64,000 nt of DNA from Mobula hypostoma (lineage: Eukaryota), in contig NC_086108.1 in the NCBI RefSeq assembly GCF_963921235.1, positions 35,776,001 through 35,840,000 of the forward strand. The letters run 5' to 3'. The notes beneath the pieces were generated by a model that saw only the letters and a program-made list of their open reading frames with translations, did no database searches and was not told where the DNA came from. Position numbers and translations under genes: made by a program. Numbering within the stretch: position 1 is the first letter of the stretch; each line of letters begins with the position of its first letter. Shown here piece after piece: positions 782 through 63,812 of this stretch.

Positions 782-3700
782 TGGCCTTGTGGCTCAGAAG
801 GGTTGGGAAAGGAAGAAGGCAGCAGTAATAATGTACTCTATAGTTAGGGGGGCCTGATGAGCGATTCTGTGGACGCAGGAAAGAAACACAGATAGTAGCT
901 TGCCTCCCAGGTGCCAGGGTCCGGGATGTTCTAATCGCGTCCGCAATATTCTGAAGTGGGAAGGTGAACAGCCAGAGTTCATGATACATATTGGTACCAA
1001 CGACATAGGTAGGAAAAGGGAGGAGGTCCTGAAAGCAGACTACAGGGAGTTAGGAAGGAAGATGAGAAGCCGGGCCTCAAAGGTAGTAATTTTAGGATTA
1101 CTGCATGTACCATGTGACAGTGAGTATAGGAACAGAGTGAGGTCAGGATTAATGGATGGCTGAGGGATTGGAGCAGGGGACAGGGATTCAGATTTCTGGG
1201 TCATTGGGACCTCTTTGGGGCAGGTGTGACCTGTACAAAAAGGATGGGTTGCTCTTGAATCCGAAGGGGACCAATATCCTAGCAGGGAGGTTTGCTAAGG
1301 CTATTGGGGAGAATTTAAACTAGAATTGCTGGGGAATGGGAACCAAACTGAAAAGATGGAGGAAAGGGCTGTTGGCTCACAAATAGAGAAAGCTTGGAGA
1401 CAGTGTGAGAGGGAGGATAGGCAGATGATAGAGAAGGCTGTGCTCAGACCGAAGGTTTGAGATGCATCTATTTTAACGCAAGGAGTGTGGAGAACAAAGC
1501 GGATGAGCTTAGAGCGTGGATCAGCACCTGGAGCTGTGATGTTGTGGCCATTACAGAGACTTGGATGGTGCAGGGGCAGGAATGGCTACTTCAAGTGCCA
1601 GGCTTTTGATGTTTCAGAAAGGACAGGGAGGGAGGCAAAAGAGGCAGGGCACTGTTGATCAGAGATAGTGTCACGGCTGCAGAAAAGTAGGAAGTCATGG
1701 AGGGGTTGTCTATGAAGTTTCTGCGGGTGGAATTTAGGAATAGGAAGGAGTCAATAACTCTACAGGGTGTTTTTTATAGACCACCCAATAGAAACAGGGA
1801 CATCGAGGAGCAGATAGGGAGACAGATTCTGGAAAGGAGTAATAATAACAGGGTTGCTGTGGTGGGAGATTTTAATTTCCCAAATATTGATTGGAATTTC
1901 CCTAGAGTGAGGGGTTTAGAAGGGGTGGAGTTTGTTAGGTGTGTTCAGGAAGGTTTCTTGAAGATGTAGATAAGCCTACAAGAGGAGAGGCTGTACCTGA
2001 TCTGATATTGGGAAATGAAACTGGTCAGGTGTCAGGTCTCTCAGTGGGAGAGCATTTTGGAGATAGTAATCACAATTCTATCTCTTTTACCATAGCATTG
2101 GAGAGGGATAGGAACAGACAAGTTAGGGAAACTTTTAGTTGGAGTAAGGGGAAATATGAGGCTATCAGGCAGGAATTTGGAAGCATAAATTGGAAACAGA
2201 TGTTCTCAGGGAAACATACGGAAGAGATGTGGCAAATGTTCAGGGGATAATTGTGTGGGGTTCTGCATAGATATGTTCCAACGAGACAGGGAAAGGATAG
2301 TGGGGTACAGGAACTGCAGTGTACAAAGGCTGTTATAAGTCTAGTCAAGAAGAAAAGAAGAGCTTACGAAAGGTTCAAAAAACTAGAGATCTAGAAGATT
2401 GTAAGGCAAGCAGGAAGGAACTTAAGAATGAAATTAGGAGAGCCAGAAGGGGTCATGAGAGGGCCTTGGTGGGCAGGATTAAGGAAAACCCCAAGGCATT
2501 CTACAAGTATGTGAAGAGCAAGAGGAGAAGACGTGAGAGAATAGGACCAATCAAATGTGACGGTGGAAAAGTGTATATGGAAACAGAGGAGATAGCTGAG
2601 GTACTCAAAGAGTTACAAAATACACGTGGACTAAGATGTTAACTGTCCTGTACTATCACCAGTGGGATCATCAGTTGATCTGCCACCTGTCTTCAGGAGT
2701 TTCAGCCCGCTTATGATCAAGACTCCCTCGAGGTGGTGGGCCAGCAGTGCTAAAGCACCACCTCCCACTGGTGAGCTTAAAAACTTGGCATCTGCCTCTG
2801 TCAGAGTTGTTGGTCACTTCCATCCAACAGATAGTCTGCTCTTCAGGTGTCTATGCAACTACTGAAGGGTTTGCAAGATATGTATACACTGTCTGACTAT
2901 CTGCCCCTCTGGACATACTTGGTCCACACCCATGCTGATCCTTTCTCTGCTGCCTCAGCTACAGCCCTGCTGGTTGACTTGATCTCTCTTCTAGTGAAGC
3001 CAAGGTCATGCAGCCACTTCTGGAGAGTGAATACAATAAACCCACGGCAGCCTGCTTCGAATGGATAGCATGAGACCTTCCACCCTCTTGTCTCTGCACT
3101 CTGATCTTAACTCTGCATACTTGGTTAACTTGCGCTCATGGGCTTCATCGATGTTGTCTTCCCAGGAGACTGTAAGTTCACCAATAACCACTTCTCTACT
3201 GGTGTCAGACCATACGATTATATCTGGACGCAATGTGGTGAAAGCTATTTGCTCCGGGAAACTGCCTTTCCCGTCCAGGTCAGCCTTGACACACCAATCA
3301 TTGGCTGAAGAAAGTATGCTTGATCGTGAGCCTGCGCTGTACACCCTTGACTTGGAGCCTTCTTTCACAAATGATATGCGATGTTCTGTGCAACATGGGG
3401 CATGAGATAAGTCGTGCTGCAGTACTCTCTGCTCAGCCGCTTCTGTTACAACTTTGAGAACGTTGTTATGTCTCCAAGTGTACATGCCGCTGGAAAGATT
3501 GACTCTGCATGCACTCAAAATATGTTGAAGTGTTCCCTTCTCGCCCCAAGCAGCACACCTGTCTGTCTTATCTTCATACCAGGTGCTGAGGTTGGCAGGT
3601 GTTGGGAGCAGATCGTACGCTGCTCTGCATAGAAAAGAAATGATTTACAGTGGATTGAAAAGCTTGAGCATATAGACATTGAGAAAGAAGATGTCTTGGA

Positions 3701-5288
3701 GCTTTTGGAAAGCATCAAGTTGTATAAATCTCTGGGATTGGACGAGATGTACCCAAGGCTACTGTGGGACGCAAGGGAGGAGATTGCTGAGCCTCTGGCA
3801 ATGATCTTTGCATCTTCAATGGGGACGGGAGAGGTTCTGGAGGATTGGAGGGTTGCAGATGTTGTTCCATTATTCAAGAAAGTGAGTAGAAATAGCCCAG
3901 GAAATTATAGACCAGTGAGTCTTACTTCAGTGGTTGGTAAGTTGATGGAAAAGATCCTGAGAGGCATGATTTATGAACATTTGGAGAGGCATAATATGAT
4001 TAGGAATAGTCAGCATGGTTGTGTCAAAGGCAGGTCGTGCCTTACGAGCCTGATTGAATTTTTTGAGGATGTGACTAAACATGTTGTTGAAGGTAGAACA
4101 GTAGATGTAGTGTATATGGATTTCAGCAAGGCATTCGATAAGCTACCACATGCAAGGCTTATTGAGAAAATAAGGAGGCATGGGATCAAAGGGGACCTTG
4201 CTTTGTGGATCCAGAATTGGCTTGCCCACAGAATGCAAAGTGTGGTTGTAGACAGGTCATATTCTGCATGGAGGTCGGTGACCAGTGGTGTGCCTCAGGG
4301 ATCTGTTCTGGGACTCCTTCTCTTTCTGATTTTTATAAATGACCTGGATGAGGAAGTGGTGGGATGGGTTAGTAAATTTGCTGATGACACAAAGGTTGGG
4401 GGTGTTGTGGACAGTGTGGAGGGCTGTCAGAGGTTACAGTGGGACAATGATAGGATGCAAAACTGGGCTGAGAAGTGGCAGATGGAGTTCAACCAAGATA
4501 AGTGTGAGGTGGTTCATTTTGGTAGGTCAAAAATAATGGCAGAATATAGTATTAATGGTAAGACTCTTGCAGTGTGGAGGATCAGAGGGATCTTGGGGTC
4601 CGAGTCCATAGGACACTCAAAGCTGCTGCGCAGGTTGACTCTGTGATTAAGAAGGCATATGGTGCACTGGCCTTCATCAACCATGAGATTGAGTTCAAGA
4701 ACCGAGAGGCAATGTTACAGCTATATAGGACCCTGGTCAGACCCCACTTGGTGTACTGTGCTCATTTCTGGTCACCTCACTACAGGAATGATGTGGAAAT
4801 TATAGAAAGGATGCAGAGGAGATTTACAAGGATGTTGCCTGGATTGAGGAGCAGGCCTTATGAGAATAGGTTGAGTGAACTCGGCCTTCTCTCCTTGGAG
4901 CAGCCAAGGATGAGAGGTGACCTGATAGACATGTATAAGATGATAAGAGGCATTGATCATATGGATAGTCAGAGGCTTTATCCCAGGGCTGAAATGGCTA
5001 ACACGAGAGGGAACAGTTTTAAGGTGCCTGGAAGTAGGTACAGAGGAGATGTCGAGGTAAGTTTTACTCAAAGAGTGGTGAATACGTGGAATGGGCTGCT
5101 GGCGATGGTGGTGGAGGTGGATATGATAGGGTATTTTAAGAGACTCCTAGATAGGTACATGGAGCTTGGAAAAATAGAGGGCTATGGGTAACCCTAGGTA
5201 ATTTCTAAAGTAAGTACATGTTCGGCACAGCATTGTGGGCCGAAGGGCTTGTATTGTGCTGTAGGTTTTCTATGTTTCTATGTTTCTA
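782..5288 (+). mobile_element. CR1 LINE, near full length: 3' part of esterase ORF1 plus APE-RT ORF2, degraded, interrupted at about 2607-3632
   Basis: ORF1 SGNH-esterase-like CLPGARVRDV and HIGTNDIG; APE motifs YRPPN, VGDFNFPNIDW, GDSNHNS; RT motifs [26 protein letters not shown]; (CTATGTTT)n 3' tail at 5268-5288; frameshifts and stops. Confidence 0.93.
2608..3632 (-). mobile_element. 5'-truncated RLE-type non-LTR retrotransposon (HERO-like) nested in CR1
   Basis: Minus frame LCRAAYDLLPTPANLSTW...CAAWGEKGTLQHILSAC...YTWRHNNVL...LRPDIIVW...VIGELTVSWEDNIDEAHERKLTKY: CCHC knuckle, RHN and PD..E..K restriction-like endonuclease. Confidence 0.85.
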
Positions 5289-6119
5289 CCTCCCAGAGGA
5301 CACCAGAATTGAACTCCAAGGTCCAACACCTTGAGCTGCAATGGTATCACACTAACGGCTACACTACCATTGGCACCCTACTGTGTTTGGTACAGCAGAT
5401 CTCTCAGTGCTTGCTGATCTCTTGTCTGCTAAGCCTCCCTCCATTCTACTCGCCCTTTGACTCAAAGCTGCCCATCGACATTATGGGCTTCTCCAAGGAA
5501 ATGGCTGCCTCTCCAGTATTTGATGAATGCTCTCGGGGCATAATCCCTTACAGATGAGTCCGTCCTCCAACCACAGAGGAATACGATCTGGATATTACGT
5601 CACCAGTGCTACAATGTGGCACAGTAATATTTATTGAGCCATTATTTTCCGATGGATAGCAAGAAATGGAATCAGTTGTCCAGGAAGATTGAGGGTATGT
5701 TTTCCTAGTCATCTGATTTCAATCAGTGAGACAGTGAGGGTGATATAGTTGACCTTACCAACCTGAAACTGGGCTGTGTAAACAGTTATTTATCGACACA
5801 TAAACAATACTGGGATGTGCCCATGACTGACTCAGATCGCTTCCTGCAGCTCTGTAATACAGGATGCTGTGCTCTGTTCCCTGCGAATCAGACCACAGTA
5901 GACATCACTCTCCATGAAAGAGAACCAGTGGTCCTCCTGAAACTTGCTTGAACTCCCATCTGAAGGACAATGGCATGACTTAAGTTTTGTCAAGGCAGGG
6001 TGCAGCCTAGGTCAAAGCACACACTTGTTTTACATCCCACATTGTTTTTCTCCTCTATTTCCTCACAGTTTTAAACCAACCAGTACATTCTCATTAAAAA
6101 AAACAATATATATGAGAAA

Positions 6120-6761
6120 CACATATCAAAGTTGCTGGTGAATGCAGCAGGCCAGGCAGCATCTTTAGGAAGAGGTACAGTCGACGTTTCAGGCCGAGAC
6201 AGGCCAAGAGCTGGACAGGTGATTGGCAAAAGGGATATGAGAGGATCATGGGACAGGAGGCCCAGGGAGAAAGAAAAGGGGGAGGGGGGGAAAAACCCAG
6301 AGGATGGGCAAGGGGTATAGTCACAGGGACAGAGGATGAAAAAGGAGAGAGAGAGAAAGAATGTGTGCATATAAATAAATAATGGATGGGGTACGAGAGG
6401 GAGGTGGGCCATTAGCGGAAGTTTTGGGCCTCCTGTCCCATGATCCCCTCATATCCCTTTTGCCTGGACCTCCCGTCCCATGATCTTCTCATATCCCTTT
6501 TGCCAATCACCTGTCCAGCTCCTGGCTCCATCCCTCCCCCTCCTGTCTTCTCCTATCATTTTGGATCTCCCCCTCCCCCTCCCACTTTCAAATCTCTTAC
6601 TAACTCTTCCTTCAGTTAGTCCTGACGAAGGGTCTCGGCCTGAAACGTCGACTGTACCTCTTCCTAGAGATGCTGCCTGGCCTGCTGCATTCACCAGCAA
6701 CTTTGATGTGTGTTGCTTGAATTTCCAGCATCTGCAGAACTCCTTGTGTTTGCGTTTTTAA
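6120..6761. mobile_element. Penelope-derived non-coding element made of two inverted pseudo-LTR segments, with a 15-bp TSD
   Basis: 6120-6423 matches the Penelope terminus at 62648-63060, internally deleted; 6424-6757 is the same terminus inverted; flanks are aatatatatgagaaa (6105-6119) and aatatctatgagaaa (6762-6776). Confidence 0.85.
6618..6653 (+). ncRNA. Minimal type I hammerhead ribozyme motif (Penelope-type)
   Basis: agtc-CTGACGA-a-GGGT-ctcg-GCCT-GAAA-cGTC-gact: conserved core boxes, helix II, palindromic ACGT helix III, helix I agtc/gact; predicted cut after 6649. Confidence 0.75.
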
Positions 6762-6842
6762 AATATCTATGAGAAAATAAGTTGTACACGCCAGCCCTTT
6801 ACTTTTCCTGCCCACCTGGCTTCACTTATCACATTCCAGCTA

Positions 6843-7215: not shown

Positions 7216-7366
7216 CCTCTGTCCTGCTTTCCCTCTCCCCAATTTTTTATTCGGGTCTCTTCCCCCTTCCTTTCCAGTCCTGCTGAAGGGCGTCAGCTTG
7301 AAACATTGACTGCTCATTTCGATGGATGCTGCCTGACTTGCTGAGCTCCGCCAGCATTTTGTGTGA
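7216..7366 (+). mobile_element. Degenerate Penelope terminus with a mutated hammerhead core
   Basis: cagtcCTGCTGAagggcgtcagcttGAAAcattgactg...gatgctgcctgacttgctgag. Confidence 0.55.
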
Positions 7367-16253: not shown

Positions 16254-17285
16254 TAAAAGTTCAAAGTAAACTTATCGAAGTATATATATGTCACCACATA
16301 CAGTGCTACCTTGAGATTCATTTTCTTGCAGGTGTTCACAGTAGAGCAAATGAATACGACAGAATCAATGAAAAACTCCACACAAAGACTGACCGACAAC
16401 CAATGTGCAAAAGAAGACAAACTGTGCGAATAGGAAAAATAATAAATAAATTATCAACAGATAAACAATACTGAGAGCATCAGTAGTAGAGTCCTCGAAA
16501 GTGAGTCCATCATTTGTGGAATCATAGTCATAGTTATACTTTATTGATCCCAGGGGGAAATTGGTTTTTGTTAGAGTTGCACCATAAATAATAATAGTCA
16601 TAGAATCATAAATAGTTAAATAGTAATATGTAAATTATGCCAGAAAATTATGAAATAAGTCCAGGACCAGCCTATTGGCTCAGGGTGTCTGACCCTCCAA
16701 GGGAGGCGTTGTAAAGTTTGATGGCCACAGGCAGGAATGACATCCTATGACACTCTGTGCTGCATCTTGGAGGAATGAGTCTCTGGCTGAATGTACTCCT
16801 GTGCCCACCGAGTATATTATGTAGTGGATGGGAGACATGGGCCAAGATGGCATGCAACTTAGACAGCATCCTATTTTCAGACACCACCGTCAGAGAGTCC
16901 AGTTCCATCCCCACAACATTGGCCTTACGAATGAGTTTGTTGATTCTGTTGGTGTCTGCTACCCTCAGCCTGCTTCCCCAGCACACAACAGCAAACCTGA
17001 TAGCACTGGCCACCACAGACTTGTAGAACATCCTCAGCATCGTCCATCAGTTCAGAGATGAGATGAGAGAAGTTATCCAATTATGCACACTGGTTCAGGA
17101 GCCTGATGGCTGAAAGTTTGTTCCTGTACCTGGTGGTGGGGGACACAAGGCTCCTGTACCCCCTTCCTGATGGCAGCAACAAGAAGAGAGCATGTCCTAG
17201 CTGAATGGGGTGGATGCTGCTTTCTTGTGGCAGTGCTCCGTGTAGGTGCTCAGTTGTGGGGAGGGCTGTGCACATCACCTTCTGT
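16254..17285 (-). mobile_element. Two nested Rex1/Babar-like LINE 3' fragments (inner copy about 16523-17045)
   Basis: ORF 16672..17040 (FYKSVVASAIRFAVVCWG...HPLH...RMSFLPVAIKLYN) and ORF 17081..17332 (HALFLLLPSGRGYRS) are Rex-type C-termini. Confidence 0.75.
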
Positions 17286-18976: not shown

Positions 18977-20596
18977 CAGTGGCATGCAAAAGTTTGCACA
19001 ACCCTGATCAAAATTTCTGTTACTCTGAGTAGTTAAGTGAGTAGAAGTGATCTCCAAAAGTCATGAAGTTAAAGATGAAACATTCTTTTCAACATTTTAA
19101 AGCAAGATTAGTGTATTATTTTTGTTTTGTACAATTTTAGAGTGAAAAAAAGGAAGGGAGCATCATGCAAAAGTTTGGGCACCCCAAGAGATTTGAGCTC
19201 TCAGATAACTTTTACCAAGGTCTCAGACCTTAATTAGTTTGTTAAGGGTATGGCTTATTCACAATCATTGTTAGGAAAGGCCAGGTGATGCAAATTTCAA
19301 AGCTTTATAAATACCCTGACTCCTCAAACCTTGTCCCAACAATCAGCAGCCATGGGCTCCCCTAAGCAGCTGCCTAGCACTCTGAAAATTAAAATAAATG
19401 ATGCCCACAAAGCAGGAGAAGGCTATAAGAAGATAACAAAGTGTTTTCAGGTAGCCGTTTCCTCAGTTTGTAATGTAATTAAGAACTGACAGTTAACAGG
19501 AACAGTGGAGGTCAAGTTGAGGTCTGGAAGACAAAGAAAACTTTCTGAGAGAACTGCTCGTAGGATTGCTAGAAAGGCAAATCAAAACCCCCATTTGACT
19601 GCAAAGACCTTCAGGAAGATTTAGCAGACTCTGGAGTGGTGGTGCACTGTTCTACTGTGCAGCGACACCTGCATAAATATGACCTTCATGGAAGAGTCAT
19701 CAGAAGAAAACCTCTCCTGCATCCTCACCACAAAATTCAGCATCAGAAGTTTGTAAAGGAACATCTAAAGAACCCTGATGCATTTTGGAAACAAGTCCAG
19801 TGGACTGATGAAGTTAAAATAGAACTTCTTGGCCACAATGAGCAAAGGTATGTTTGGAGAAAAAAGGGTGCAGAATTTCATGAAAAGAACACCTCTCCAA
19901 CTGTTAAGCACGGGGATGGATCGATCATGCTTTGGGCTTGTGTTGCAGCCAGTGGCACGGGGAACATTTCACTGGTATAGGGAAGAATGAATTCAATTAA
20001 ATACCAGCAGATTATGGAAGCAAACATCACACCGTCTATAAAAAAAAAGCTGAAGATGAAAAGAGGATGGCTTCTACAATAGGATAGTGATCCCAAACAC
20101 ACCTCAAAATCCACAATGGACTACCTCAAGAGGCGCACGCTGAAGGTTTTGCCATGGTCCTCACTGTCCCTCGACCTATGCATCATTGAAAATCTGTGGA
20201 TCGACCTCAAAAGAGCAGTGCATGCAAGATGGCCCAAGAATCTCACAGAACTAGAAACCTTTTACAAGGAAGAATGGGTGAAAATCCCCCAAACAAGAAA
20301 TGAAAGACTCTTAGCTGGCTACAGAAAGCGTTTACAAGCTGTGATACTTGCCAAAGGGGGTTTTACTAAGTACTGACCATGCAGGGTGCCCAAACTTTTG
20401 TTTCCTGCCCCTTTCCTTTTTTGTTATTTTGAAACTGTAAAAAATGGAAATAAAAAAGTCATCTTGCTTAAAATGTTAAAGAAATGTGTCATCTTTAACT
20501 TTATGCCTTTAGGAAATCAGTTCATCTTTTACTCGCTTAGCTATTCACAGTAACAGAAATTTTGACAAGGGGTGCCCAAACTTTTGCATGCCACTG
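18977..20596 (+). mobile_element. Full-length Tc1 (DD34E) transposon with IR/DR ends
   Basis: About 210-bp TIRs starting CAGTGGCATGCAAAAGTTTG and ending CAAACTTTTGCATGCCACTG; inner direct repeats near 19164 and 20385; encloses a transposase gene. Confidence 0.93.
19352..20376 (+). pseudogene. Tc1 transposase pseudogene
   Basis: MGSPKQLP...GEGYKKI; WTDE, VKHGDGSIMLWAC, Q*DSDPKH, IENLW, AKGGFTKY; in-frame stops and frameshifts. Confidence 0.9.
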
Positions 20597-26965: not shown

Positions 26966-27599
26966 TGACAGTCATGAATGATTTGTGCTTAACTGGCAAA
27001 TACAACCAATTATTCTCTCTCTTTTACTCGGCTTCACTCCTGGGATTGTCTCAGGACATGAGATGAGCATTGAAATGGACTAGAAGATTAAATTACCCAA
27101 CACTTACTCATTGAGGTTAAGACAAAACTTAGCCCTTGCAGAGAGATTGCAAGCTAAACAGGGAAGTGAGTAAATATTGCTAAATGCTTGTCCTAAAAGG
27201 AAAACTTCTATTTCAAAAACAAAGTTTATTCATAATAAAATATCTGTATGAAAAGAAAAACAGTTTTAAAATATTCTACATTCTTAGTCAATATAATTAG
27301 TATTGATATCACTTTTGTTAAAACTGTGGTGGTTGTCTGTAGTATCCAATGCTGACAGGAAACCTGTGAGGGAGTGTTTTTAAAGTGGAAAGCCATTGCA
27401 CTGGGGCAGTTCCATTCTCTTGATCTCAGAACTCCAGGTCCAGTGATAGGAACAAGCGTCAGAAACTGGGGGTTCTTCCTTGGTTGCAGTGGATGACCGT
27501 GAAGTCTTCTGTGCTTTGTCATGCCCTTCGCTCTCCATGGAGTGTTACAGTACACATTCCTGGCTGTTAGATTTCACTATAGATCTTATTCACCCAGGC

Positions 27600-28537
27600 C
27601 ACCCAATCCACGCCAGGTCTCACCAATATACAGCATATTCTCCACAACTTCCGCCGTCTTCAACGGGATCCCACCACCAAGTACATCTTTCCCTCCCATC
27701 CAAATTTATGCTTTCCGCAAGGATCACTCCCTACGCGACTCCCTTGTCCATTCGTCCCTCCCAACTGATCTCCCTCCTGCCATTAATCCTTGCAAGCAGA
27801 ACAAGTGCTACACCTGCCCCTACATCCCCTCCCTCACTATCAGTCAGGGCTCCAAACAGTCCTTCCAGGTGAGGTGACACTTCACCTGTGAGGCTATGGG
27901 GGTCATACACTGTGTCCTGTGCTCTTGATGTGGCCTCCGATATATCGATGAGGCCCGATGTAGATTGGGAACTGCTTTGCCAAGCACCTACGTTCTGTCC
28001 ACCAGAAAAAGCAGGATCTCCCAGTGGCCACACATTTTAATTCCACTTCTCATTCCTATATGTCTAACCATGGCCCCCTCTACTGTCGCAATGAGGCCTC
28101 ATTCAGGCTGGAGGAACAACACCCTATATTCCATCTGGATAGCTTCCAACCTGATGGCATGAACGTCGATTTCTCAAACTTCTGGTAATGGGCCCTCCTC
28201 TTCTTCACCGTTCCCCTTTTTCCTCTCTCGCCTTGTCCCCTTGCCTGCCCGTCACCTCCCTCTGGTGCTCCTCCCCACTCCTTTCTTCCATGGTCTTCTG
28301 TCCTCTCCTGTTAGATTCCCCTGTCTCCAGCCCTGTATCTCTTTCACCAATCAACTTCCCAGCTCTTTACTTCACCCCTCCCCCTCCCGGTTTCAGCTAT
28401 CACCTTGTCTTTCTCTCTCCTCTCCCTTCACCTTTCAATTCTACTCATCTCTTTTTCCCCAGCCCGAAACATTGACTGTACTCTTTTCCATAGATGCTGC
28501 CTGGCCTGCTGAGTTCCTCCAGCATTTTCTGTGTGTA
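27600..28537 (+). mobile_element. Penelope-like element 3' part (GIY-YIG region plus terminus), degraded
   Basis: RKDHSLRDSLVHS...PCKQNKCYTCPY...QGSKQSFQVR is colinear with ORF 63072..63815; the terminus keeps only cccGAAAcattgactg. Confidence 0.85.
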
Positions 28538-29160
28538 GCCTTAACCTGTTGTTCTCTCTGCGTCGTGGGTCCTTATAAGGGTAAATGCATTGTGTAATTT
28601 GCCAGTAAAGTGTCATCGTCCAATATCAAACTCAGTTCACTTGGCCATTAATTGATAGTTACTAATGTGGTGAGGGGAGACAGTTTTGCTCCCCTTTTGA
28701 ATACATCTTGCCTCCGGCTATGATATCTGCACCTGGAATGTGGCTCCATTGAAGCAAGATAAAAATAGGGGAAAGGCCTCAGTGCAAGATCCAACTTTAA
28801 GTTCCTTGTCTGATGATTGATTGAGTAATTCTTGTCTTGTTTTTACACTATTTGCCTGGCTAAAGGAAGATTATTTTGGTAAAACAATAAAAGGAATGGT
28901 GGGCTGGGGTGTGACTGAGAGCAAATGGACAGTGGGCAGGATATGAGAGTTATCCAACTGTTCTCACAGAGGTTTCCTTAACAAAAGCAAGGGTCCCAAA
29001 GTCACCCAGTCTCCTCATCTTGCCATTCACATCACTGTTCAAAAACATTTTTCAAATCAGCTTAAATACGAGGAATTCTGCAGATGCTGGAAATTCAAGC
29101 AACACACATCAAATTCACTGGTGAACGCAGCAGGCCAGGCAGCATCTCTAGGAAGAGGTA

Positions 29161-29195
29161 CAGTCGACGTTTCGGGCTGAGACCCTTCATCAGGA
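29161..29195 (-). ncRNA. Minimal hammerhead ribozyme motif (helix I 5' strand shortened)
   Basis: Reverse complement tc-CTGATGA-a-GGGT-ctca-GCCC-GAAA-cGTC-gactg. Confidence 0.6.
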
Positions 29196-29197
29196 AG

Positions 29198-29233
29198 AGT
29201 CCTGACGAAGGGTCTTGGCTCGAAACGTCGACT
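29198..29233 (+). ncRNA. Minimal hammerhead ribozyme motif
   Basis: agtc-CTGACGA-a-GGGT-cttg-GCTC-GAAA-cGTC-gact. Confidence 0.72.
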
Positions 29234-30274
29234 GTACCTCTTCCTAGAGATGCTGCCTGGCCTGCTGCATTCACCAACAAATTTGATGTGTGTTGCTTTC
29301 AAATCAGCTAAGGGCCAGTTTTCCAAGCAATGGCTAATTATTCTCACCACACAGATGCACATACAAATTACACAAACACACATACAAGCTAACAAGAAAA
29401 GAAAATGCCAAATTTAGTTAAAATAATGTAAAACTTTGTTTCCTGTTCAGCAAGATTGGTTTTCACCTCCTAGTGCCAATAGCTTGCAAATGCTCAAGGT
29501 ATTAATTCTTTTTTTCTCCTATCTGATAGGTGAACTAAGAAAAACGATAAACAGGTTCTGGCCTTCAGTGCTGTCTGAGTAGTTTGCACATTCTTCTTGT
29601 GGGAGAGTGGGTTTCATCTGGGTATTTCAGTTTCCTACCACATTCCAAAGACATGCAGGGTATCAGTTTACCCAGTAAGTTGTCCTTCAGGTATTTCGCA
29701 TGGGAGAAGCAGCTTCGTATTACAGGGCATATGAAAGATAATAGGTTGCACGAAAATAAGGGTGGGAATGGGATTGGTCGAATTCTGTTTAGAATTCGGA
29801 TTGGTCATATGACCTCCTTCCCTGTTGTAAGAAAAAAAATGGAAATTCCAAAAATCTCCATTTCAATAAATTATCTTTTGGCATTTTTTCATTAATTTTC
29901 CCTTTGAATTTTGTAAAAGCATGTCAGCCTTCCAAGACAGCCATTTTCTATTGATTGATCTATGGGATCAGAATTCAGTAATTTATTCGTATTTCTGCTT
30001 CTTGCCCTCATGATACCTTCTCCATTTCCAACCATGTCAAAGGAAGAATCAGCATCAAATATCAGCACCAATCTTTATTCTTAAAAGATCTGTGTAACAT
30101 TTCACTCTCAGCATTCTACAAAAATCTGTTAACAACTATGCAGCTTTCGTAATTTGTTGCCCATGTTAATATAAATAGATATCGATAGGCTTGCATCTTT
30201 AAATTATGGAGAGCGGATGTAGTGCAGTGCGGGTTTCACCTGCCCAACCACTCGTTCTGCCACTTATGGAGATG

Positions 30275-31149: not shown

Positions 31150-33860
31150 ACCATTAAGAAAGAAGATGCTGGATCCTTCGAAAAACATTAGGATAGATAA
31201 TTCCCCGGAGCATATGGGATTTATTCCAGGTTACTCGGGGAAGTGAGGGCAGAGATTGCTCGCCTTTGGCAATGATCTTCATGTCCTCATTTACTACAGG
31301 AGTAATACCGGATGATTGGAGGATAGCAAATGGTATCTCCTTGTTTAAGAAAGGCAGTAGAAATAACCCTGGGAATTATTGAACAGTGAGTCTTACTTCA
31401 GTGGTGGGGAATTTATTGGAGAAGATTCTTAGAACAAGGTTTACAAGCATTTGGAGAAGGATAGTATGATTAGGAATGGTCAGCAGGGCTTTGAGAGGGG
31501 CAAGTCATGCCTTACGAGCCTGATTGAATTCTTTGAGATTTGGGGAAAAAAACACTGATGAAGGAAGAGCAGTGGATGTGGTTTATAGGGATTTAGTAAG
31601 GTGTTTGATAATGTTCCCCATCGTAGGCTCATTCAGTAAGGCAGGAGGCATCGGATTCAGGGAAAATTGGCTGCATGGATTCAGTATCGGCTTACCCATA
31701 GAAGGCGGAAGGTGGTTGTAGATAGAGCATATTCTGCCTGGAAGTCAGTGACCAGTGGTGTTCTGCACACATCTGTTATGGGACCCCTGCTCTTTTTTAG
31801 AATTGACTTGGATGAGGAAGTGGAAGGGTGAATTAATAAGTTTGCAGATGACATGAAGGTTGGTGGTGTTGTGAATAGTGTAAAAGGTTGTTGTGGGTTA
31901 CAATAGGACATTGATAGGATGTAGAGCTAGGGCTGAGAAGTGAGAGGTGCTTCCTTTGGATGGTCAAATTTGAAGCCAGAATACAGGATTAATGGCAGAA
32001 TATTTAACAGTGTGGAGGAACAAAGGGATCTTGAGGTCTATGTCCATAGATCCTTCAAAGTTGCTTCACAAGTTGGTAGGGTGGTTAAGAAGACCTGTGG
32101 CAAGTTGGCCTTCATTAGAAAGGAGATGGAGTTCAAAAGCCATGAGCCAGTGTTGCAACTCTATAAAACCCCAGTTAGATTACACTTGGAGTAATGTGTT
32201 TAGTCCTGGTCATTTTATTATAGGAAGGATGCGAAAGCTTTAGAAAGAGTGCAGAGGAGACTTACCAGAATGCTGCCTGGTTTGGAGAGCATATCTTATG
32301 AGGGTAAGTTGAATGAGCTAAAAGTTTTCTATTCAGAGCAAAGGTGGATGAGAGGTGCCTTGATAGAGGTGTACAAGATGATAACAAGCATAGACCGAGA
32401 GGGCAGCCAGAGATTTTTTCTCAGGGCAGAAATTAATAATATGAGTGGGCATTATTTTAAGGAAATTGGAGGAAAGTATAGAATCAGAATCAGGTTTATT
32501 ATCACCGGCATGTGACATGAAATTTGTTAACTTAGCAGCAGCAGTTCAATGCAATACATAATCTAGCAGAGAAATAAATAAATAAAATAAAAATAATGAT
32601 AATAAATAAACAAGTAAATCAATTATGTATATAGAATAGATTTTTTTAAATGTGCAAAAACAGAAATACTGTGTATTAAAAAGAAATTGAGGTAGTGTCC
32701 AAAGATTCAATAACCATTTAGGAATCAGATGGCCAAGGAAAAGAAGCTGTTCCTGAATTGCTGAGTGTATGCCTTCAGGCTTCTGTACCTCCTACCTGAT
32801 GATAACAGTGAGAAAAGGGCATACTCTGGGTGCTGGAGGTCCTTAATAATGGACGCTGCCTTTCTGAGACACTGCTCCCTAAAGATGTCCTGGGTACTTT
32901 GTAGGCTAGTACCCAAGATGGAGCTGACTAACTTACAACCTTCCGCAGCTTCTTTCAGTCCTATGCAGTATCCCCTCCATACCAGTGAATTTTTGAGTGT
33001 ATTTGTTGACATGCCAAATCTCTTCAAACCCCTAATGAGGTATAGCCGCTGTCTTGCCTTCTTTATAACTACATCGATATGTTGGGACCAGGTTAGATCC
33101 TCAGAGATCTTGACACCCAGGAACTTGAAGCTGCTCACTCTCTCCACTTCTGATCCCTCTATGAGGATTGGTATGTGTTTTTTCGTCTTACCCTTCCTGA
33201 GGTCCACAATCAGCTCTTCTATCTTACTGATGTTGAATGCCAGGTTGTTGCTGCAGCACCATTCCACTAGTTGGCATATCTCACTCCTGTACGCCCTCTC
33301 CTCACCACCTGAGATTCTACCAACAATGGTCATATCGTCAGCAAATTCATAGATGGTATTTGAGCTATGCCTAGCCACACAGTCATGTGTATATAGAGAG
33401 TAGAGCAGTGGGCTAAGCACACACCCCTGAGGTACGCCAGTGTTGATCATCAGCGTGGGCGTGATGTTATCACCAATCGACACAGATTGTGGTCTTCCAG
33501 TTAGGAAGTCAAGAATCCAATTGCAAAAGGAGGTACAGAGACCCAGGTTCTACAACTTCTCAATCAGGATTGTGGGAATGATGGTATTAAATGCTGAGCT
33601 TTAGTCGATGAACAGCATCCTGACGTAGGAGGTATGTCAGAGCTAAGTGTTTTATACAGACAGTGGTGGTTGCCTGGAATCAAGGGTAGTGGTAGAGGCA
33701 GGACACATTAGAGACATTTATGAGACTCTTCAATAGACACGTGGATGATAGTAAAATGAAGGACTATCTGGAGAGGATGGGTTAGGGTGATCTTAGGTCA
33801 GCACAACATCGTGGTCTGAAGGGCCTGTACTGTGGCGTGCTGTTCTATGTTCTATTTTCT
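31150..33860 (+). mobile_element. CR1 LINE RT/3' part, degraded, split by a Rex1/Babar insertion
   Basis: RT motif DNA (gtgaccagtggtgtt, tttgcagatgac); the CR1 sequence stops at about 32480 and resumes at about 33629; ttctatgttcta tail. Confidence 0.85.
32480..33628 (-). mobile_element. Rex1/Babar-clade LINE, 5'-truncated
   Basis: ORF 32725..33483 with [25 protein letters not shown] and [11 protein letters not shown]; (GATTCT)n tail. Confidence 0.9.
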
Positions 33861-49325: not shown

Positions 49326-51214
49326 ACAGAAACATAGAAACATAGAAACATAGAAAATAGGTGCAGGAGTAGGCCATTCGGCCATTCGAGCCTGCACCGC
49401 CATTTATTATGATCATGGCTGATCATCCAACTCAGAACCCCGCCCCAGCCTTCCCTGCATACCCCCGATCTCCGTAGCCACAAGGGCCATATCTAACTCC
49501 CTCTTAAATATAGCCAATGAACTGGCCTCAACTGTTTCCTGTGGCAGAGAATTCCACAGATTCACCACTCTCTGTGTGAAGAAGTTTTTCCTAATCTCGG
49601 TCCTAAAAGGCTTCCCCTCTATCCTCAAACTGTGACTCCTCGTTCTGGACTTCCCCAACATCGGGAACAATCTTCCTGCATCTAGCCTGTCCAATCCCTT
49701 TAGGATTTTATACGTTTCAATCAGATCCCCCCTCAATCTTCTAAATTCCAACGAGTACAAGCCTAGTTCATCCAGTCTTTCTTCATATGAAAGTCCTGCC
49801 ATCCCAGGAATCAATCTGGTGAACCTTCTTTGTATTCCCTCTATGGCAAGGATGTCTTTCCTCAGATTAGGGGACCAAAACTGCACACAATACTCCAGGT
49901 GTGGTCTCACCAAGGCCTTGTACAACTGCAGTAGTACCTCCCTGCTCCTGTACTCGAATCCTCTCGCTATAAATGCCAGCATACCATTCGCCTTTTTCAC
50001 CGCCTGCTGTACCTGCATGCCCACTTTCAATGACTGGTGTATAATGACACCCAGGTCTCGTTGCACCTCCCCTTTTCCTAATCGGCCACCATTCAGATAA
50101 TAATCTGTTTTCCTACTTTTGCCACCAAAGTGGATAACTTCACATTTATCCACATTAAATTGCATCTGCCATGAATTTGCCCACTCACCCAACCTATCCA
50201 AGTCACCCTGCATCCTCTTAGCATCCTCCTCACAGCTAACACTGCCGCCCAGCTTTGTGTCATCCGCAAACTTGGAGATGCTGCATTTAGTTCCCTCATC
50301 CAAGTCATTAATATATATTGTAAACAACTGGGGTCCCAGCACTGAGCCTTGCGGTACCCCACTAGTCACTGCCTGCCATTCTGAAAAGGTCCCATTTATT
50401 CCCACTCTTTGCTTCCTGTCTGCTAACCAATTCTCTATCCACATCAATACCTTACCCCCAATACTGTGTGCTTTTAAGTTTGCACACTAATCTCCTGTGT
50501 GGGACCTTGTCAAAAGCCTTTTGAAAATCCAAATATACCACATCCACTGGTTCTCCCCTATCCACTCTACTAGTTACATCCTCAAAAAATTCTATGAGAT
50601 TCGTCAGACATGATTTTCCTTTCACAAATCCATGCTGACTTTGTCCGATGATTTCACCGCTTTCCAAATGTGCTGTTATCACATCTTTGATAACTGACTC
50701 CAGCAGTTTCCCCACCACCAACGTTAGGCTAACCGGTCTATAATTCCCCGGTTTCACTCTCCCTCCTTTTTTAAAAAGTGGGGTTATATTAGCCACCCCC
50801 CAATCCTCAGGAACTAGTCCAGAATCTAACGAGTTTTGAAAAATTATCACTAATGCATCCACTATTTCTTGGGCTACTTCCTTAAGCACTCTGGGATGCA
50901 GACCATCTGGCCCTGGGGATTTATCTGCCTTTAATCCCTTCAATTTACCTAACACCACTTCCCTACTAACATGTATTTCGCTCAATTCCTCCATCTCACT
51001 GGACCCTCTGTCCCCTACTATTTCTGGAAGATTATTTATGTCCTCCTTAGTGAAAACAGAACCAAAGTAATTATTCAATTGGTCTGCCATGTCCTTGCTC
51101 CCCATAATCAATTCACCTGTTTCTGTCTGTAGGGGACCTACATTTGTCTTTACCAGTCTTTTCCTTTTTACATATCTATAAAAGCTTTTACAGTCAGTTT
51201 TTATGTTCCCTGCC

Positions 51215-51216
<2 letters not shown>
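49326..51216 (-). mobile_element. Young CR1 LINE, 5'-truncated, RT region almost intact
   Basis: ORFs 50452..51327 and 49413..50447 are separated by a single frameshift; (CTATGTTT)n tail at 49326-49356. Confidence 0.95.

Positions 51217-51217
<1 letters not shown>

Positions 51218-51308
<91 letters not shown>
51218..51308. repeat. (CA)n microsatellite
   Basis: About 45 units with one GA interruption. Confidence 0.97.
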
Positions 51309-51309
<1 letters not shown>

Positions 51310-51632
51310 ATTCACAAAAACACCCATATTCCCAGTTGATGTTCTATGTGCACATAATGGGCTTAGTGGTCTTTATCAGCTTCCAAAGAGTGATCAGCTG
51401 GATTACACAGGTCATAAGGAAATTCCAGGTGGAAGTGTAGTCATAGTATAATAACAAAATGGAGAAGAGCTTTGAGCAAGCAGCTTTTGCAAGTGAGCAT
51501 AAGGCTTGAAGCTCCACATTTCTCCCTGCACAAGAAACAACACCCTTATCACCACACCTACAGAAAAGCAATGAGCTTATCATCAGAGCTATCTAATGTT
51601 TTAGATAGTAAACCTAAAACAGATAGTAGATG

Positions 51633-57449: not shown

Positions 57450-59688
57450 GTAAGTAATAAGTAATAAACCCTCCATTAACTACCAGCTGTTACACAACCC
57501 AGTATAAAGCTTGTTGTTTCATGTCTGCCTCTCTGGGTAGACAGATTTAACTTTTGCACTTTCAGAGTTTTAGATCTACTTCTGCTTTGCATAGTACTGA
57601 CCAACTATTTTCAGAACTGTAAAAAATTATTGCTTCAGTAAAACAAAGATAATTGCTAGAATTATAGAGCATTGCCCGAGATTTGAAATCTAATTGTAGA
57701 CAATAGGGCAATGTCGCTTTGCATTTCTTTTGGAATTAACACTGTAGATTTTTGCTTCACTATTTTCTCACTTTACTTGTGGAGTTTTGAGGAGAAAGAA
57801 ACATCTTTTGGATTATAGGTTATTATAGTTATACTTCTCTTGACGTTCCTAATGTCTGTATCTTTTCCTTTGCAGTATTAAAGAGCTGAGGAATCGGTGT
57901 TCACACCTATTGCAGCATCAGAAGGCAACCACCAATTCCTCTCAACATGCAAAGGTCAAACCAGGAGGAGGAAAAATCATTTTAAAGTAAGTTACTGTGC
58001 CTACTTAAACCTTGGTGCTCCAAAACATTTATTTGAAATGTGCATTTGTAACCTTGAATGCAAAGACGTCAATAATAATTTTATTTCTATTTCTCCACAG
58101 TCCCACCCATGAAGAAGTACTGAAATGGGCTGAATCACTGGACAAGCTACTGGGTCATAAATGTAAGCAGCTTACTGTACATCACTTATGATCAGTTGCC
58201 TCTCTGTGCTGATTACCCTTTCTTCTTCGGAATATAATGAGAAGTTCTGAATTCCCATTAAATCTGTCCAAGAGGGAAAGGCACTCTTTAAAATTCAGTG
58301 CCCAAAGTAAATAATCTGATGTTTTAATGGAAAATTGCAACCTACTTAAATCCAAATAATACACTTAGAGATATAAAAACATGGAAGTTTAAATGCTGAA
58401 GTTTAATTTCATTTTTAAAAATCCTTCATAACATTGTTACATAGATTCTACTGCATAGATTCTTATACAGTTTGACTTGAAAGAAATTAATTCAAGTTCT
58501 AATAATGTAAAGTCAGGTGATATTAATGTGATGAACATTAAGAATAATGTTCACCCTTTCCCTAGTAACATATACACATTGCATTACGTGCTGCATAAGT
58601 AAGCATTATGGCCAGCAGCAGCAAAGAGTAGCAGTAATCTGCACTGCAAATATCAGAGTTATAATATTATGGGCTTTAGAAAGTCAACAGAGCTGTTTAG
58701 AAATTTTAATGTAATTACCATGACAATTGAGGAATGAAGTAGCATGAAGTAATGTATTATTTCTTTTTTCTTCTCTCCAGATGGGCTGATTGCCTTTAAA
58801 ACGTTCCTTAAGTCTGAGTACAACGATGAGAACATTGAGTTCTGGCTGGCCTGCGAGGACTACAAGAAAATTAAGTCACCCACAAAACAAGCCTCCAGAG
58901 CAAAGAAGATCTTCTCAGATTTTCTTGAGCCAATGTCTCCTAAAGAGGTAATTGTTGACTGACTTCTTCCTATCGATTATCAGGGTTTACTTCATTGAAA
59001 ACTAAACAGGCATCAATGTCCATGGGATCAATTATAATGATAGACTGAAGTAGAAGCTCCACAGTAGTGCTGGTTCAATGTGTACATAATGCTTACTGAC
59101 ACACACGGACAAGACAAGTCTCAGATTCCGTTCTGCGTGTGTGGTGAGCACAAAGGCTCTACATTCTTCCTGCGTTAAAGGTACTCAACAAGTGAAGCTG
59201 CACCAACGCAGGGGCATAAACAGTCAATGTTTTGGGCTGAGACCCTTCGTCAGGACAAGGAGCTCAGTCCAAAACATCAACTGTTTATTCCACTCCATAG
59301 ATGCTGCCTGACTTGCTGAGTTCCTCCAGCAATTTACGTATGTTGCTCAAAATAGCCAGCATCCACAGAATCTCTTCTTTGACAATCACCCTCAGCTGTC
59401 TGCAATAATAGAAGTAAACAAATGTGGTAGACTAGACATGTTAATGCTGACAAGTGCTCTGCAGCAATCACTAATAGTGTTACAATTTATTTTTTATAAC
59501 AGATTAATGTGGATTACTATACTAAAGATGCAATCACCAAAAACCTTCAACACCCAACCTGCTCGTGCTTTGAAGTTGCACAGAAGAAGATCTACGCTTT
59601 GATGGAGAATAATTGCTATGCAAGGTTCCTTCAGTCAGATATCTACCAGAACATACTCAACAACAGTCTCGACCATCACCAAACATGA
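57343..59688 (+). CDS. RGS2: Regulator of G-protein signalling 2-like; 5 coding exons join(57343..57449,57876..57986,58101..58162,58781..58947,59503..59688), 210 aa
   Basis: GT-AG introns with phases 2,2,1,0. Protein is [13 protein letters not shown]...[21 protein letters not shown]...[54 protein letters not shown]...[12 protein letters not shown]...[26 protein letters not shown]...*. The MQ.. N-terminus, amphipathic helix, KYGL and the MENN motif are RGS2-like. Confidence 0.87.
57876..57986 (+). CDS. RGS2: RGS2-like coding exon 2 (111 nt)
   Basis: tttgcag acceptor; [13 protein letters not shown] amphipathic helix; donor gtaagt. Confidence 0.85.
58101..58162 (+). CDS. RGS2: RGS2-like coding exon 3 (62 nt)
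   Basis: [20 protein letters not shown]; cag/gtaagc. Confidence 0.9.
58781..58947 (+). CDS. RGS2: RGS2-like coding exon 4 (167 nt)
   Basis: [55 protein letters not shown]; cag/gtaatt. Confidence 0.95.
59180..59375. mobile_element. Degenerate palindromic Penelope-derived element in RGS2 intron 4
   Basis: aaacagtcaatgttttgggctgagacccttcgtcaggac ... ctcagtccaaaacatcaactgttta; hammerhead GAAA box mutated to AAAA. Confidence 0.7.
59503..59688 (+). CDS. RGS2: RGS2-like coding exon 5 (186 nt including stop)
   Basis: [61 protein letters not shown]. Confidence 0.93.
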   Translation: MNVDYYTKDAITKNLQHPTCSCFEVAQKKIYALMENNCYARFLQSDIYQNILNNSLDHHQT

Positions 59689-60810: not shown

Positions 60811-62647
60811 GTTATTTGAATTCAGCTCAGATGTTATACCAGATTTTTTTTGTGCTTCTAATTTTTTTGTAGTAATCTCACTCTTTCATTAAGCCTTAAA
60901 TGCAATTACATTCTATAAGGTGATACAGTTGTGGGACAACATTAAGAAGTCACAGTAGAGGTTTGATTGGAAGCAACTGAATTTTCACCATATACTTATC
61001 AGCAGATTGACCCCATGAAGGCAGAAACCAACAGTAGTAATTGGGAGCTGGTGAACCATGTTCAGTATGGGGTGGGGACCTCCCTGGCTGAGGAATGATA
61101 ATGAGAAAGGCAAAGGGCTGTTACCAGACCTTACTGAGCTCACCGGGAGCCAACCTCCTCATGGCTGTCAACAAAAAAAGCATTTTCTAGAAACACTCAG
61201 CAGGTCGGGCATCATTTGTGGGAACAGTTACCGATTCAGATCGCAGACACTTTGCCGTGCTCTGTTTTCACTCCTCTCAGAAGGCAGGATAAAGCAGTCA
61301 GATCCTGAGGTCAGCAAACATCACATTCAGTCATCAGGTGAGCTGGTCCGTTGACATCGACCTATGGCATGCACTAACTCCAATGTTGACTGTCCTCTGC
61401 AGCTGGACCAATTTCGTATCTGCCGGGCATAACTTAGAGCCAGCATGCATTATTTAAAGACACTCGTAAATACAGCACCTGGCTGCAGAGCTCAGTATAA
61501 TTCTCCTGAGGCACCACTCCCTTCTACATCCCCATCAATCACCTACTTTTCTTCCTGAGCACCGCTGAGCCATTGCACTTCGTGACAGCCTGAGAGGCAC
61601 AACTTGCAGTTTCATATTTTATCATCTGTTCTGCCAACATTCGAACAACACTAACTGTTGCACTTGGAACGTGAACTGCAGAGTCCTCCAAAAACGACTC
61701 TGCAAATGTAGAGCGCGATCAGAGCTGAGGACATTAAACATCAAACCGCAATATCCCCCCCTCCCAAGAAAGAGTCCCACAGCCGCAAGTCGCGCAGAGG
61801 TGGTCAAACCTGCACCCTCCTGCAGCAGCAGCGGGAGGGAGAGCAGTCAAACGCAAGCTGACGCTTTAATCGACGAGGAGTAACGGAACCCACCACGGGT
61901 CCACGTTCTGCCATTAGGAAACGATGGCCATGCACTCCACTCCCAGCCTAGCCAAATTCCCCAGGAGATAGCTGGAGTGCCAGATCACTCAGGTCCCCCC
62001 AAACACATCTGACTGTATGTTGGATCTGGCCTGTCAGGAGGGGATAACTAAAGTCAGATGAAATCAGTGAGATTAAAAGGGAGGGGGTTTAACTGTGTGG
62101 GAGAGTCAAAAAGCAGCAAGTGGTGGCAAATGGTTGTTTTTCAAACTGAGCCGAACTGCCTCACATGGGGTCAACCAACACTTTTTACTATACACTATGT
62201 TAATGAACAGCACTTGGCATAACTTCAATGTTTGTGGGTGAATCCAAAAGGAAGTAAAGTGTAACGTATTACAGGAGAATGAAGGCCGGCTGCTGAGAGA
62301 GACAGCATCATGACAGGTGAACTTTAGCGTGGAGCAGAGGAGGGTGATTCGCTTCAACAGAGCAATATAAATAGAGAGTAGTCTGGAAAGAGATGCAAGA
62401 ACAGAAGAACCGAGGGGCGTCTGCGCAAAATCTTTGAAGGTGGGGGGACAAATTATGAAAGCTATTAAAGGAAATGAGAAGAAAAGGCATCTGACCATAC
62501 ATCCCTACAAGGGACTGTGAGGACTGCTGAGAAGATCATCAGGGTTCTCTTCCAACCACCAGGAGCATTACCTACACAGAGCCCTTAGCATTGTCAGTGA
62601 CTCCACCCCCACCCCCACCATCTGTACCATAATCTCTTTAGCCACTG

Positions 62648-63812
62648 CAACACACATCAAAGTTGCTGGTGAACGCAGCAGGCCAGGCAGCATCTCTAGG
62701 AAGAGGTACAGTCGACGTTTCGGGCCGAGACCCTTCGTCAGGACTAACTGAAGGAAGAATGAGTAAGAGATTTGAAAGTGGGAGGGGGAGGGGGAGATCC
62801 AAAATGATAGGAGAAGACAGGAGGGAGAGGGATGGAGCCAAGAGCTGGACAGGTGATTGACAAAAGGGATATGAGAGGATCATGGGACAGGAGGCCCAGG
62901 GAGAAGGAAAAGGGAGGGGGGGAAGGAAACTCAGAGAATGGGCAAGGGGTATAGTGAGAGGGACAGAGGGAGAAAAAGGAGAGAGAGAGAAAGAATGTGT
63001 GTATAAAAATAAATAACGGATGGGGTACGAGGGGGAGGTGGGGCATTAGCGGAAGTTTGAGAAGTCAATGTTCATGTCACCAGGTTGGAGGCTACCCAGA
63101 CAGATTTAAAGTGTTGTTCCTTCAACCTGAGTGTGGCTTCATCTTTATAGTAGAGGAGGCCGTGGATAGACATACCAGAATGGGAATGGGATGTGGAATT
63201 AAAATGTGTGGCCACTGGGAGATGCTGCTTTCTCTGGCGGACAGAGCGTAGGTGTTCAGCAAAACGATCTCCCAGTCTGCGTCGGGTCTTGCCAATATAT
63301 AGAAGGCCACATCGGGAGCACCGGACGCAGTATATCACCCCAGCCGACTCACAGGTAAAGTGTCGCCTCACCTGGAAGGATTGTTTGGGGCCCTGAATGG
63401 TGTTAAGGGAGGAAGTGTAAGGGCATGTGTAGCACTTGTTCCGCTTACAAGGATAAGTGCCAGGAGGGAGATCCGTGGGGAGGGATGGGGGGGAATGAAT
63501 GGACAAGGGAGTCGCGTAGGGACCGATCCCTGCGGAAAGCAGAGGGGCGGGAGGGAAAGATGTGCTTAGTGGTGGGATCCCGTTGGAGGTGGCGGAAGTT
63601 ACGGAGAATAATATGTTGGACCTGGAGGCTGATGGGGTGGTAGGTGAGGACCAGGGGAACCCTATTCCTAGTGGGGTGACGGGAGGATGGAGTGAGAGCA
63701 GATGTGCGTGAAATGGGGGAGATGCGTTTGAGAGCAGAGTTGATGGTGGAGGAAGGGAAGCCCCTTTCTTTAAAAAAGGAGGACATCTCCCTCGTCCTGG
63801 AATGAAAAGCCC
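62648..63812 (-). mobile_element. Penelope-like element, 5'-truncated: GIY-YIG endonuclease region and terminal repeat
   Basis: ORF 63072..63815 PCKRNKCYTCPY...GVIYCVRCSRCGLLYIGKTRRRLGDRFAEH...VATHFN; ORF 63445..63840 FKERGFP (RT thumb/linker). Confidence 0.93.
62710..62745 (-). ncRNA. Minimal type I hammerhead ribozyme motif in the Penelope terminus
   Basis: Reverse complement agtc-CTGACGA-a-GGGT-ctcg-GCCC-GAAA-cGTC-gact, in the same sense as the Penelope ORF. Confidence 0.8.

Follow-up and report, generated by a model that had tools for sequence, protein, structure and literature searches.

A 234-bp fold-back insertion with two opposed hammerhead motifs, built from 3' ends of an abundant Penelope-like element

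A 234-bp fold-back unit carrying two opposed hammerhead motifs was found to be a real insertion in a 64-kb window of Mobula hypostoma DNA (the window being the whole stretch of 64,000 nucleotides that was analysed). The feature is genuine but ordinary, a very short dead insertion of a Penelope-like element (PLE). Very probably it is a one-off event in which the last 133 nt and the last 99 nt of an abundant endonuclease-bearing (EN+) PLE, of the Neptune/Nematis type, came to lie head to head.

Results

Anatomy of the insert

The 13-mer TTTCAAATCAGCT borders the unit on both sides (left copy 29050-29062, right copy 29297-29309, both read on the + strand) as an exact target-site duplication that cannot be extended in either direction. 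Searching both strands of the 64-kb window gave these 2 occurrences and no other, and the chance expectation of such 13-mer matches within ±10 nt of both ends is approximately 9 × 10−6. The insert itself (29063-29296, 234 bp) begins with 34 nt, followed by two 99-nt arms that stand 4 nt apart. The loop AGAG separates the inverted arms (29097-29195 and 29200-29298), which show complementarity at 91 of 99 positions; the last 2 nt of the right inverted arm overlap the duplication (2-nt microhomology).

When aligned with their family, the left arm (29097-29195, − strand) extends to 29195 and the right arm (29198-29296, + strand) begins at 29198, leaving at the head-to-head junction 2 nt (29196-29197) without a match in either arm; the loop's remaining 2 nt are right-arm family sequence. 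Both arms are 5'-truncated PLE pLTRs, whose 5' ends lie 2 nt (left) and 4 nt (right) before the C3 of the respective hammerhead. Only the left arm carries the 34-nt PLE 'tail' (29063-29096, − strand), an optional 3' extension.

Each arm contains a minimal type I hammerhead motif, at 29164-29195 (− strand) and 29198-29233 (+ strand), with cores starting at 29193 and 29202, respectively. The predicted C17 falls at 29166 on the − strand and at 29229 on the + strand, the latter being the cut position proposed in an earlier, sequence-only reading of this DNA. That reading had described the exact 13-bp duplication bounding a 234-bp unit, the two near-perfect inverted 99-nt arms around a 4-nt loop and the opposed hammerhead cores, one per arm, all of which we recovered. 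It had missed both the identity of 29063-29096 as a PLE tail and the unequal stem I, which has 4 bp in the right hammerhead and is down to 2 bp in the left (the norm for minimal hammerheads being 4-5 bp).

The insertion is absent from one relative and shared with another

Assembled contigs from 4 of 24 listed sequencing runs were mapped onto 28700-29750; one of the runs, X1, possibly comes from the source sample itself and does not count as independent. The empty site was found in run X10 (organism D, flanks ∼6% diverged). Its contig 9 (547 nt) aligns, at consecutive record coordinates, to 28856-29052 and 29300-29646, joining 29052 to 29300 with a skip of 247 (234+13) and containing the 13-mer as a single copy. 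In run X5 (organism B, flanks ∼1.4% diverged), both outer junctions are bridged, with 35 and 31 nt of the element, contig 31 linking arm, duplication and flank on the right side. The insertion therefore postdates the split from D and predates the split between A and B. An assembly fold-back artefact is ruled out, since the arms differ at 8 sites, one relative has both outer junctions and another has the empty site.

Among the 32 contig pieces listed (with 137,550 more beyond these), none spanned the centre at high identity. One X5 piece that crosses the centre shows 10 differences and 2 gaps over 95 nt and probably derives from another locus. In run X17 (organism A; that it is RNA is a guess), the family arms were covered and the unique flanks were not, which gives no evidence either way.

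The arms belong to an abundant Penelope-like element family

Both arms are 95% identical to positions 62647-62745 of the window and 92-95% identical to 6618-6751. In particular, the left arm matches at 92 of 97 positions the copy at 62647-62743, which continues into a GIY-YIG frame, and the right arm is 95% identical to 6618-6718 and 62647-62745. The 62647-62745 segment sits ∼330 nt past the stop of this frame (63075-63866), which matched the Pfam GIY-YIG model with an E value of 2 × 10−4 and 22.1 bits, just under the curated cut-off of 22.6, and which has a CX4CxxC linker before the endonuclease together with CCHH-type residues. The GIY-YIG frame and a frame overlapping it are 43% and 36% identical, respectively, to protein P0001, whose RVT_1 and GIY-YIG matches are both slightly below the cut-offs. 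The homologue search for longer proteins gave 1 match among 2685 candidates.

The longest family copy in the window (62647-63870, − strand) comprises frameshifted RT-thumb-side and GIY-YIG frames, an intact hammerhead motif and a tail-less 3' end; around it no duplication of convincing length was found, the best being 8 nt with one mismatch. The window showed neither a full-length member of the arm family nor an RT frame or core belonging to it. This is a very abundant family: in X1, summed contig depth on the arms was ∼3 × 10^5 times that of the flanks, a ratio that is not a copy number.

Judged from these sequence matches, the arms are the 3' end (pLTR) of an abundant EN+ PLE. According to the available text of PMC8557442, linkers of the CX4CxxC type (CX2-5CxxC) are common to Neptune, Nematis and Naiad and absent in Penelope/Poseidon. 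The 62.6-63.9 kb copy shares with Neptune/Nematis PLEs a C-terminal GIY-YIG domain preceded by such a linker. The clade would thus be of the Neptune/Nematis type, as assigned by the linker motif only. The locus combines the traits of an EN+ PLE insertion, namely arms linked to GIY-YIG, a hammerhead in the pLTR, an inverted truncated copy with a tail at one end and a target-site duplication. A MITE or DNA-transposon reading was rejected on the grounds that the inverted arms are retroelement 3' ends and of unequal length.

Elsewhere, the window is densely populated by decayed mobile elements, and no host exon was identified there. A related PLE of ∼1.1 kb (27450-28540, + strand), 79% identical to the 62.6-63.9 kb copy, ends 500 bp to the left of the insert and has its hammerhead core deleted between two CAG words. 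Frames at 3006-3644, 3633-5191, 16672-17046, 19573-19980, 32725-33549 and 49413-51372 resemble what we take to be CR1 and Rex-type LINE RTs, a LINE end with a restriction-like endonuclease and a Tc1-like transposase.

A tailed and a tail-less arm

The copy at 6618-6751 closes with the same 34-nt extension, which is missing from the copies that end at 29296, 6116 and 62647. The window has five 3' ends of this family, and they occupy two sites only, 2 with the tail and 3 tail-less, and the right arm of the insert terminates at the tail-less site. Loose contig ends cluster at 29064, in 321 contigs of X1 and 350 of X5.

PLE tails of 30-40 bp have been described (PMC8557442, PMC3846280, PMC11167929). 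The accessible portion of PMC3846280 reports inverted pLTRs, mostly head to head, with a 31-bp tail on one of them and duplications of 8-10 bp. The presence of the tail on one arm only thus reproduces the published 'inverted copy plus tail' PLE pattern. Biochemical work on PLEs, as far as set out in the available text of PMC11167929, shows that reverse transcription starts at two RNA sites bounding the tail and that the Anolis PLE protein, once purified, can nick both strands and extend them in vitro. The activity of the protein did not need hammerhead cleavage, and the Anolis PLE hammerhead cleaved only with the protein.

Proposed priming of the two cDNAs

On the + strand, cDNA-sense sequence from the tail end directly follows the left duplication. 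On the − strand, cDNA-sense sequence from the tail-less site directly follows the right duplication, with 2 nt of microhomology. Both outer junctions show target-primed geometry, and this is the geometry expected if both 3' ends of a 13-nt staggered cut had served as primers; on it we base a two-primer reading. The PLE endonuclease would have made a 13-nt staggered cut, and both 3'-OH ends would have primed reverse transcription, one from the tail start site and the other from the tail-less site. Both cDNAs would then have halted just past the hammerhead and been end-joined with 2 untemplated bases. As a step of the mechanism, two-primer synthesis is reasonably likely.

During L1 twin priming both target nicks prime cDNA, which yields a head-to-head junction within the duplication. 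The insert resembles L1 twin priming in both respects; however, L1 pieces are adjacent parts of one RNA, whereas here both pieces cover the same 99 nt and begin at two PLE start sites. Among the papers covered by our literature search (main texts, few of them from subscription journals), none was found that applies twin priming to PLE inversions.

The main competitor of the two-primer step is self-priming (snap-back), in which one cDNA or an antisense template would prime itself and fold back at the hammerhead's 5' edge. The product would still be a one-off PLE insertion, and when weighed against two-primer synthesis we regard snap-back as possible, though clearly the less likely of the two. 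It is the interpretation given to palindromic head-to-head junctions in the part of PMC3846280 available. The near-symmetric centre of the insert (−2 and −4 from C3) is as compatible with snap-back, or with one stop site common to both cDNAs, as with two independent stops. One minor base is common to both arms (29114/29281; the alternative base makes up 86% of X1 depth), a weak hint at a single template. The positions of the 3' ends speak against snap-back: starting from a tailed cDNA it requires a chance stop at the second start site, and starting from a tail-less cDNA it cannot produce the tail. That the right arm stops exactly at the tail-less site used by independent copies is unexpected for a DNA-templated copy.

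The window contains a second head-to-head insertion of the same PLE family at 6105-6776 (642 bp, with a 15-bp duplication matching at 14 of 15 positions), again with one tail-less and one tailed arm. Its junction lies ∼317 and ∼157 nt upstream of C3, and this asymmetry of ∼160 nt also counts against snap-back. The tail-less arm of this second insertion has lost ∼105 nt, including most of its hammerhead, and its tailed arm shows a short internal duplication near the junction.

A metagenome scan for head-to-head hammerhead junctions returned 9 loci, none of this PLE family, and 7 of the 9 were short chance palindromes. In locus L002 (554-679), a perfect palindrome with 63-nt arms has its centre where another minimal hammerhead, one with an ACAUGU helix III, has its 5' edge. 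Such a centre would favour snap-back, but the locus was chosen by its pattern and the palindrome reaches the contig end, and it may be an assembly fold-back. A longer palindrome, L007 (564-671), has a CUGAUGA word and no GAAA core.

Similar central junctions recur at low depth

Contig joints were used to compare centres across the family. Among the 15 joints shown (329 in all), 11 connect a left-arm to a right-arm piece. Both ends fall within the arms in 6 of these 11, at six different places, while the other 5 stop at the edge of the reference arms, 4 of them being unplaceable. Depth at 29196, relative to the arm depth at 29178, was 0.083% in X1, 0.068% in X5 and 0.026% in X10, or ∼260, ∼310 and ∼120 single-copy multiples, respectively. 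At 29196 a perfect palindrome of the same spacing should have C, and this base was present in 31, 28 and 11 contigs (X1, X5 and X10), with summed depths of ∼110, 65 and 25 times single-copy. As this base appears in all three runs, including X10, which lacks this locus, similar centres do recur. Independent events in so abundant a family could supply them; alternatively, a hot spot of modest strength, or a family with this centre numbering up to ∼100 copies, may exist.

A hot spot would arise if reverse transcription halted repeatedly at the 5' edge of stem I, because of an RNA fold, an RNA 5' end or a splice acceptor located there, so that independent insertions would share a near-identical centre. 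The ends of both arms, 2-4 nt from C3, agree with this proposal, as do the contigs with C at 29196. An older, decayed head-to-head pair of a related PLE family (59217-59371; 6-nt spacer, no clear duplication) likewise has one arm ending at stem I, its other arm beginning in stem II. In addition, a pyrimidine tract and an AG immediately precede stem I in family copies, and PMC4209133 (available text) places the end of the D. virilis intron at the 5' end of helix I. Yet the depths with C at 29196 are below 0.04% of arm depth, and some of these contigs are perhaps short end extensions and not crossings. Six other centres appear among the 15 joints shown, and since the reference cannot place junctions upstream of the hammerhead it provides no background rate. 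Most loose ends at 29195, moreover, run on into unspliced upstream family sequence. Overall, we consider a stem I hot spot improbable.

The pyrimidine tract and AG stand directly at stem I at 6587-6619, 62744-62775 (− strand) and 7250-7277, and the 6.6-kb copy has a TACTAAC branch-point-like word as well. By its sequence the arrangement resembles a 3' splice acceptor and is reminiscent of the Penelope intron of D. virilis; no spliced form of the family was seen. An RNA end or splice junction at stem I might explain why both arms stop there, and we offer this as a lead only.

The sequence-only reading had offered two origins, a very heavily truncated Penelope insertion that includes an inverted terminal copy or a self-propagating retrozyme- or SINE-like family. 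The first is the one retained here, and the second gave way to the variable junctions, the lack of a same-sense tandem and the uncompensated CpG decay. A retrozyme family with a fixed junction is unsupported, because the junction of 6105-6776 differs, many other junctions occur in the runs and less than 0.1% of arm depth extends over the centre. As a rival reading, the unit could belong to a small SINE- or retrozyme-like non-autonomous family with a fixed palindromic centre, re-mobilised whole by the PLE protein. Read-through transcripts of either strand would have a sense pLTR 3' end, a possible target of that protein; the depth covering the centre reaches ∼260 times single-copy in X1, and non-autonomous PLE derivatives exist (PMC8557442; bioRxiv 10.64898/2026.07.22.740005; both as available). 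Nevertheless, 43% of the X1 centre depth has a different base at 29196 and the rest includes chance 2-nt extensions of ordinary copies, and no second copy of this centre was present among the 15 pLTR-like matches in the window. The unit is also without promoter or tandem arrangement, its decay is uncompensated and a 99-bp duplex would be a poor template. We therefore hold such a family to be very improbable and return to the one-off PLE insertion.

A separate class of contigs, found in three species, has a joint from 29195 to 29063, returning from the hammerhead edge to the tail end. These could be head-to-tail partial pLTR tandems, an arrangement able to give same-sense hammerhead dimers.

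Hammerhead motifs, folding and decay

Both arms have a hammerhead core with an extra A after A9, a G10.1-C11.1 pair, a 4-bp stem II and a palindromic ACGU replacing helix III. In the right stem II there are two private changes (29216 and 29220), one of which yields a G-U pair. The motif is also present at 6622 and 62741, in ordinary family context. Rfam gave 0 matches at the gathering score over the 64 kb, hammerhead models included. In 29000-29400, at E values up to 10, it gave 10 matches, none of them a hammerhead; the top five, to miRNA hairpin models, scored at most about half the gathering score and were rejected as generic hairpin matches.

The minimal hammerhead was defined in PMC4209133. 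With the minimal metazoan PLE hammerheads in the available text of that paper, the motifs share the extra base at 9/10.1, the G10.1-C11.1 pair, the palindromic 15.2-16.2 stretch and, in the right arm, a 4-bp helix I, whereas helix II has 4 bp here versus 7-8 bp in Schistosoma. Opposite-strand pairs 100-700 bp apart are reported there and linked to truncated PLEs; in contrast, the two motifs here are just 8 nt apart and one has lost half of its stem I. Among the papers covered (few from subscription journals, and main texts only), none was found on PLE hammerheads of the host group, and the supplementary alignments of PMC4209133 may list the motif.

The unit had been proposed to switch between a long hairpin and a cleaving fold. 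Folding does not support this. The whole unit folds as one hairpin of −185.1 kcal/mol (+ strand) or −188.2 kcal/mol (− strand), and forcing the hammerhead fold costs +53.7 and +47.5 kcal/mol, respectively. Pair probabilities for stems I and II are at most 1 × 10−13; when growing prefixes are folded, the emerging core is paired with the antisense arm. As the arms meet at their 5' ends, the antisense arm is transcribed first from either strand. This order, together with a cost of ∼50 kcal/mol for the hammerhead fold, makes a hairpin/ribozyme switch unlikely. The double hammerhead has a predicted energy of −8.7 kcal/mol (right) or −6.1 kcal/mol (left) versus −59.0 kcal/mol for a 72-nt local hairpin. 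ViennaRNA, which ignores help from the protein, disfavours the double hammerhead even for an intact family copy (−14.7 versus −32.1 kcal/mol), and is thus a poor judge of ribozyme activity. The loop-less ACGU motif is predicted to need a same-sense partner, and a single transcript of the unit could not supply such a dimer. In these models the hammerheads would be pLTR passengers sequestered in a 99-bp hairpin.

The 8 mismatches between the arms, 4 private to each arm, include 0 that are compensated. Four of the 8 are at CpG positions, which represent 12 of 97 positions (p ∼0.01). In the left arm, three clustered changes at 29113-29125 make a small perfect hairpin (TTCAC/GTGAA), perhaps through one templated event.

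These data bear on whether the unit has a function as RNA, either by alternating between a self-cleaving fold and a long dsRNA hairpin or as a co-opted hairpin that gives small RNAs or is edited. The catalytic cores are intact on both arms, the hairpin is strong on either strand and the insertion has been retained since the split of organisms A and B. Still, the negligible pair probabilities of the hammerhead stems and the antisense arm preceding the ribozyme on both strands argue against a switch, as does the need of these motifs for a same-sense partner, single minimal motifs being inactive in vitro (PMC4209133, available text). The arms have diverged at 8 of 99 positions, as compared with 1.4% between the flanks of A and B, with no compensation. 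An RNA function of this kind is extremely unlikely, the least probable of all the explanations considered, and a dead PLE insertion remains our preferred reading.

Discussion

Taken together, our results place the insert among the complex EN+ PLE insertions described in the accessible parts of PMC3846280 and PMC8557442, with which it shares head-to-head inverted pLTRs, a tail at one end and a short duplication. It differs from them in that only two pLTR ends remain and there is no ORF. Its duplication is 13 bp long, as compared with 8-10 bp in Adineta PLE insertions (PMC3846280).

Non-LTR retrozymes, as portrayed in the available text of bioRxiv 10.64898/2026.07.22.740005, are likewise non-coding, carry a type I hammerhead and derive from PLE pLTRs. 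They are, however, head-to-tail tandems with same-sense ribozymes, whereas the arms here are inverted with one sense ribozyme per strand. The unit thus lacks the at least 2 consecutive same-sense hammerheads in tandem by which retrozymes are recognised.

The locus itself is one of very many truncated PLE ends, and papers on PLEs already depict its configuration. It is useful as a clean worked example, with an exact duplication, the empty site of a relative, a tailed and a tail-less arm and target-primed outer junctions. The geometry of the outer junctions fits a PLE protein that extends both strands from two start sites in vitro (PMC11167929, available text).

The junction statistics of a high-copy family such as this could test how PLE head-to-head inversions form. 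In these genomes, head-to-head PLE insertions might arise by priming from both nicks at two RT start sites, with the 5' edge of stem I as a preferred stop. This would give a recurrent class of 230-bp fold-backs, whose perfect-palindrome form may have spread slightly. We assign a low probability to this wider proposal. If both-nick priming and the stem I stop were true, junction counts could decide between twin priming and self-priming, given an arm depth of ∼3 × 10^5 times single-copy, and the ribozyme or an intron would be tied to the template's 5' end. Such insertions would also seed hairpins of ∼100 bp genome-wide, and dsRNA would form where they are transcribed.
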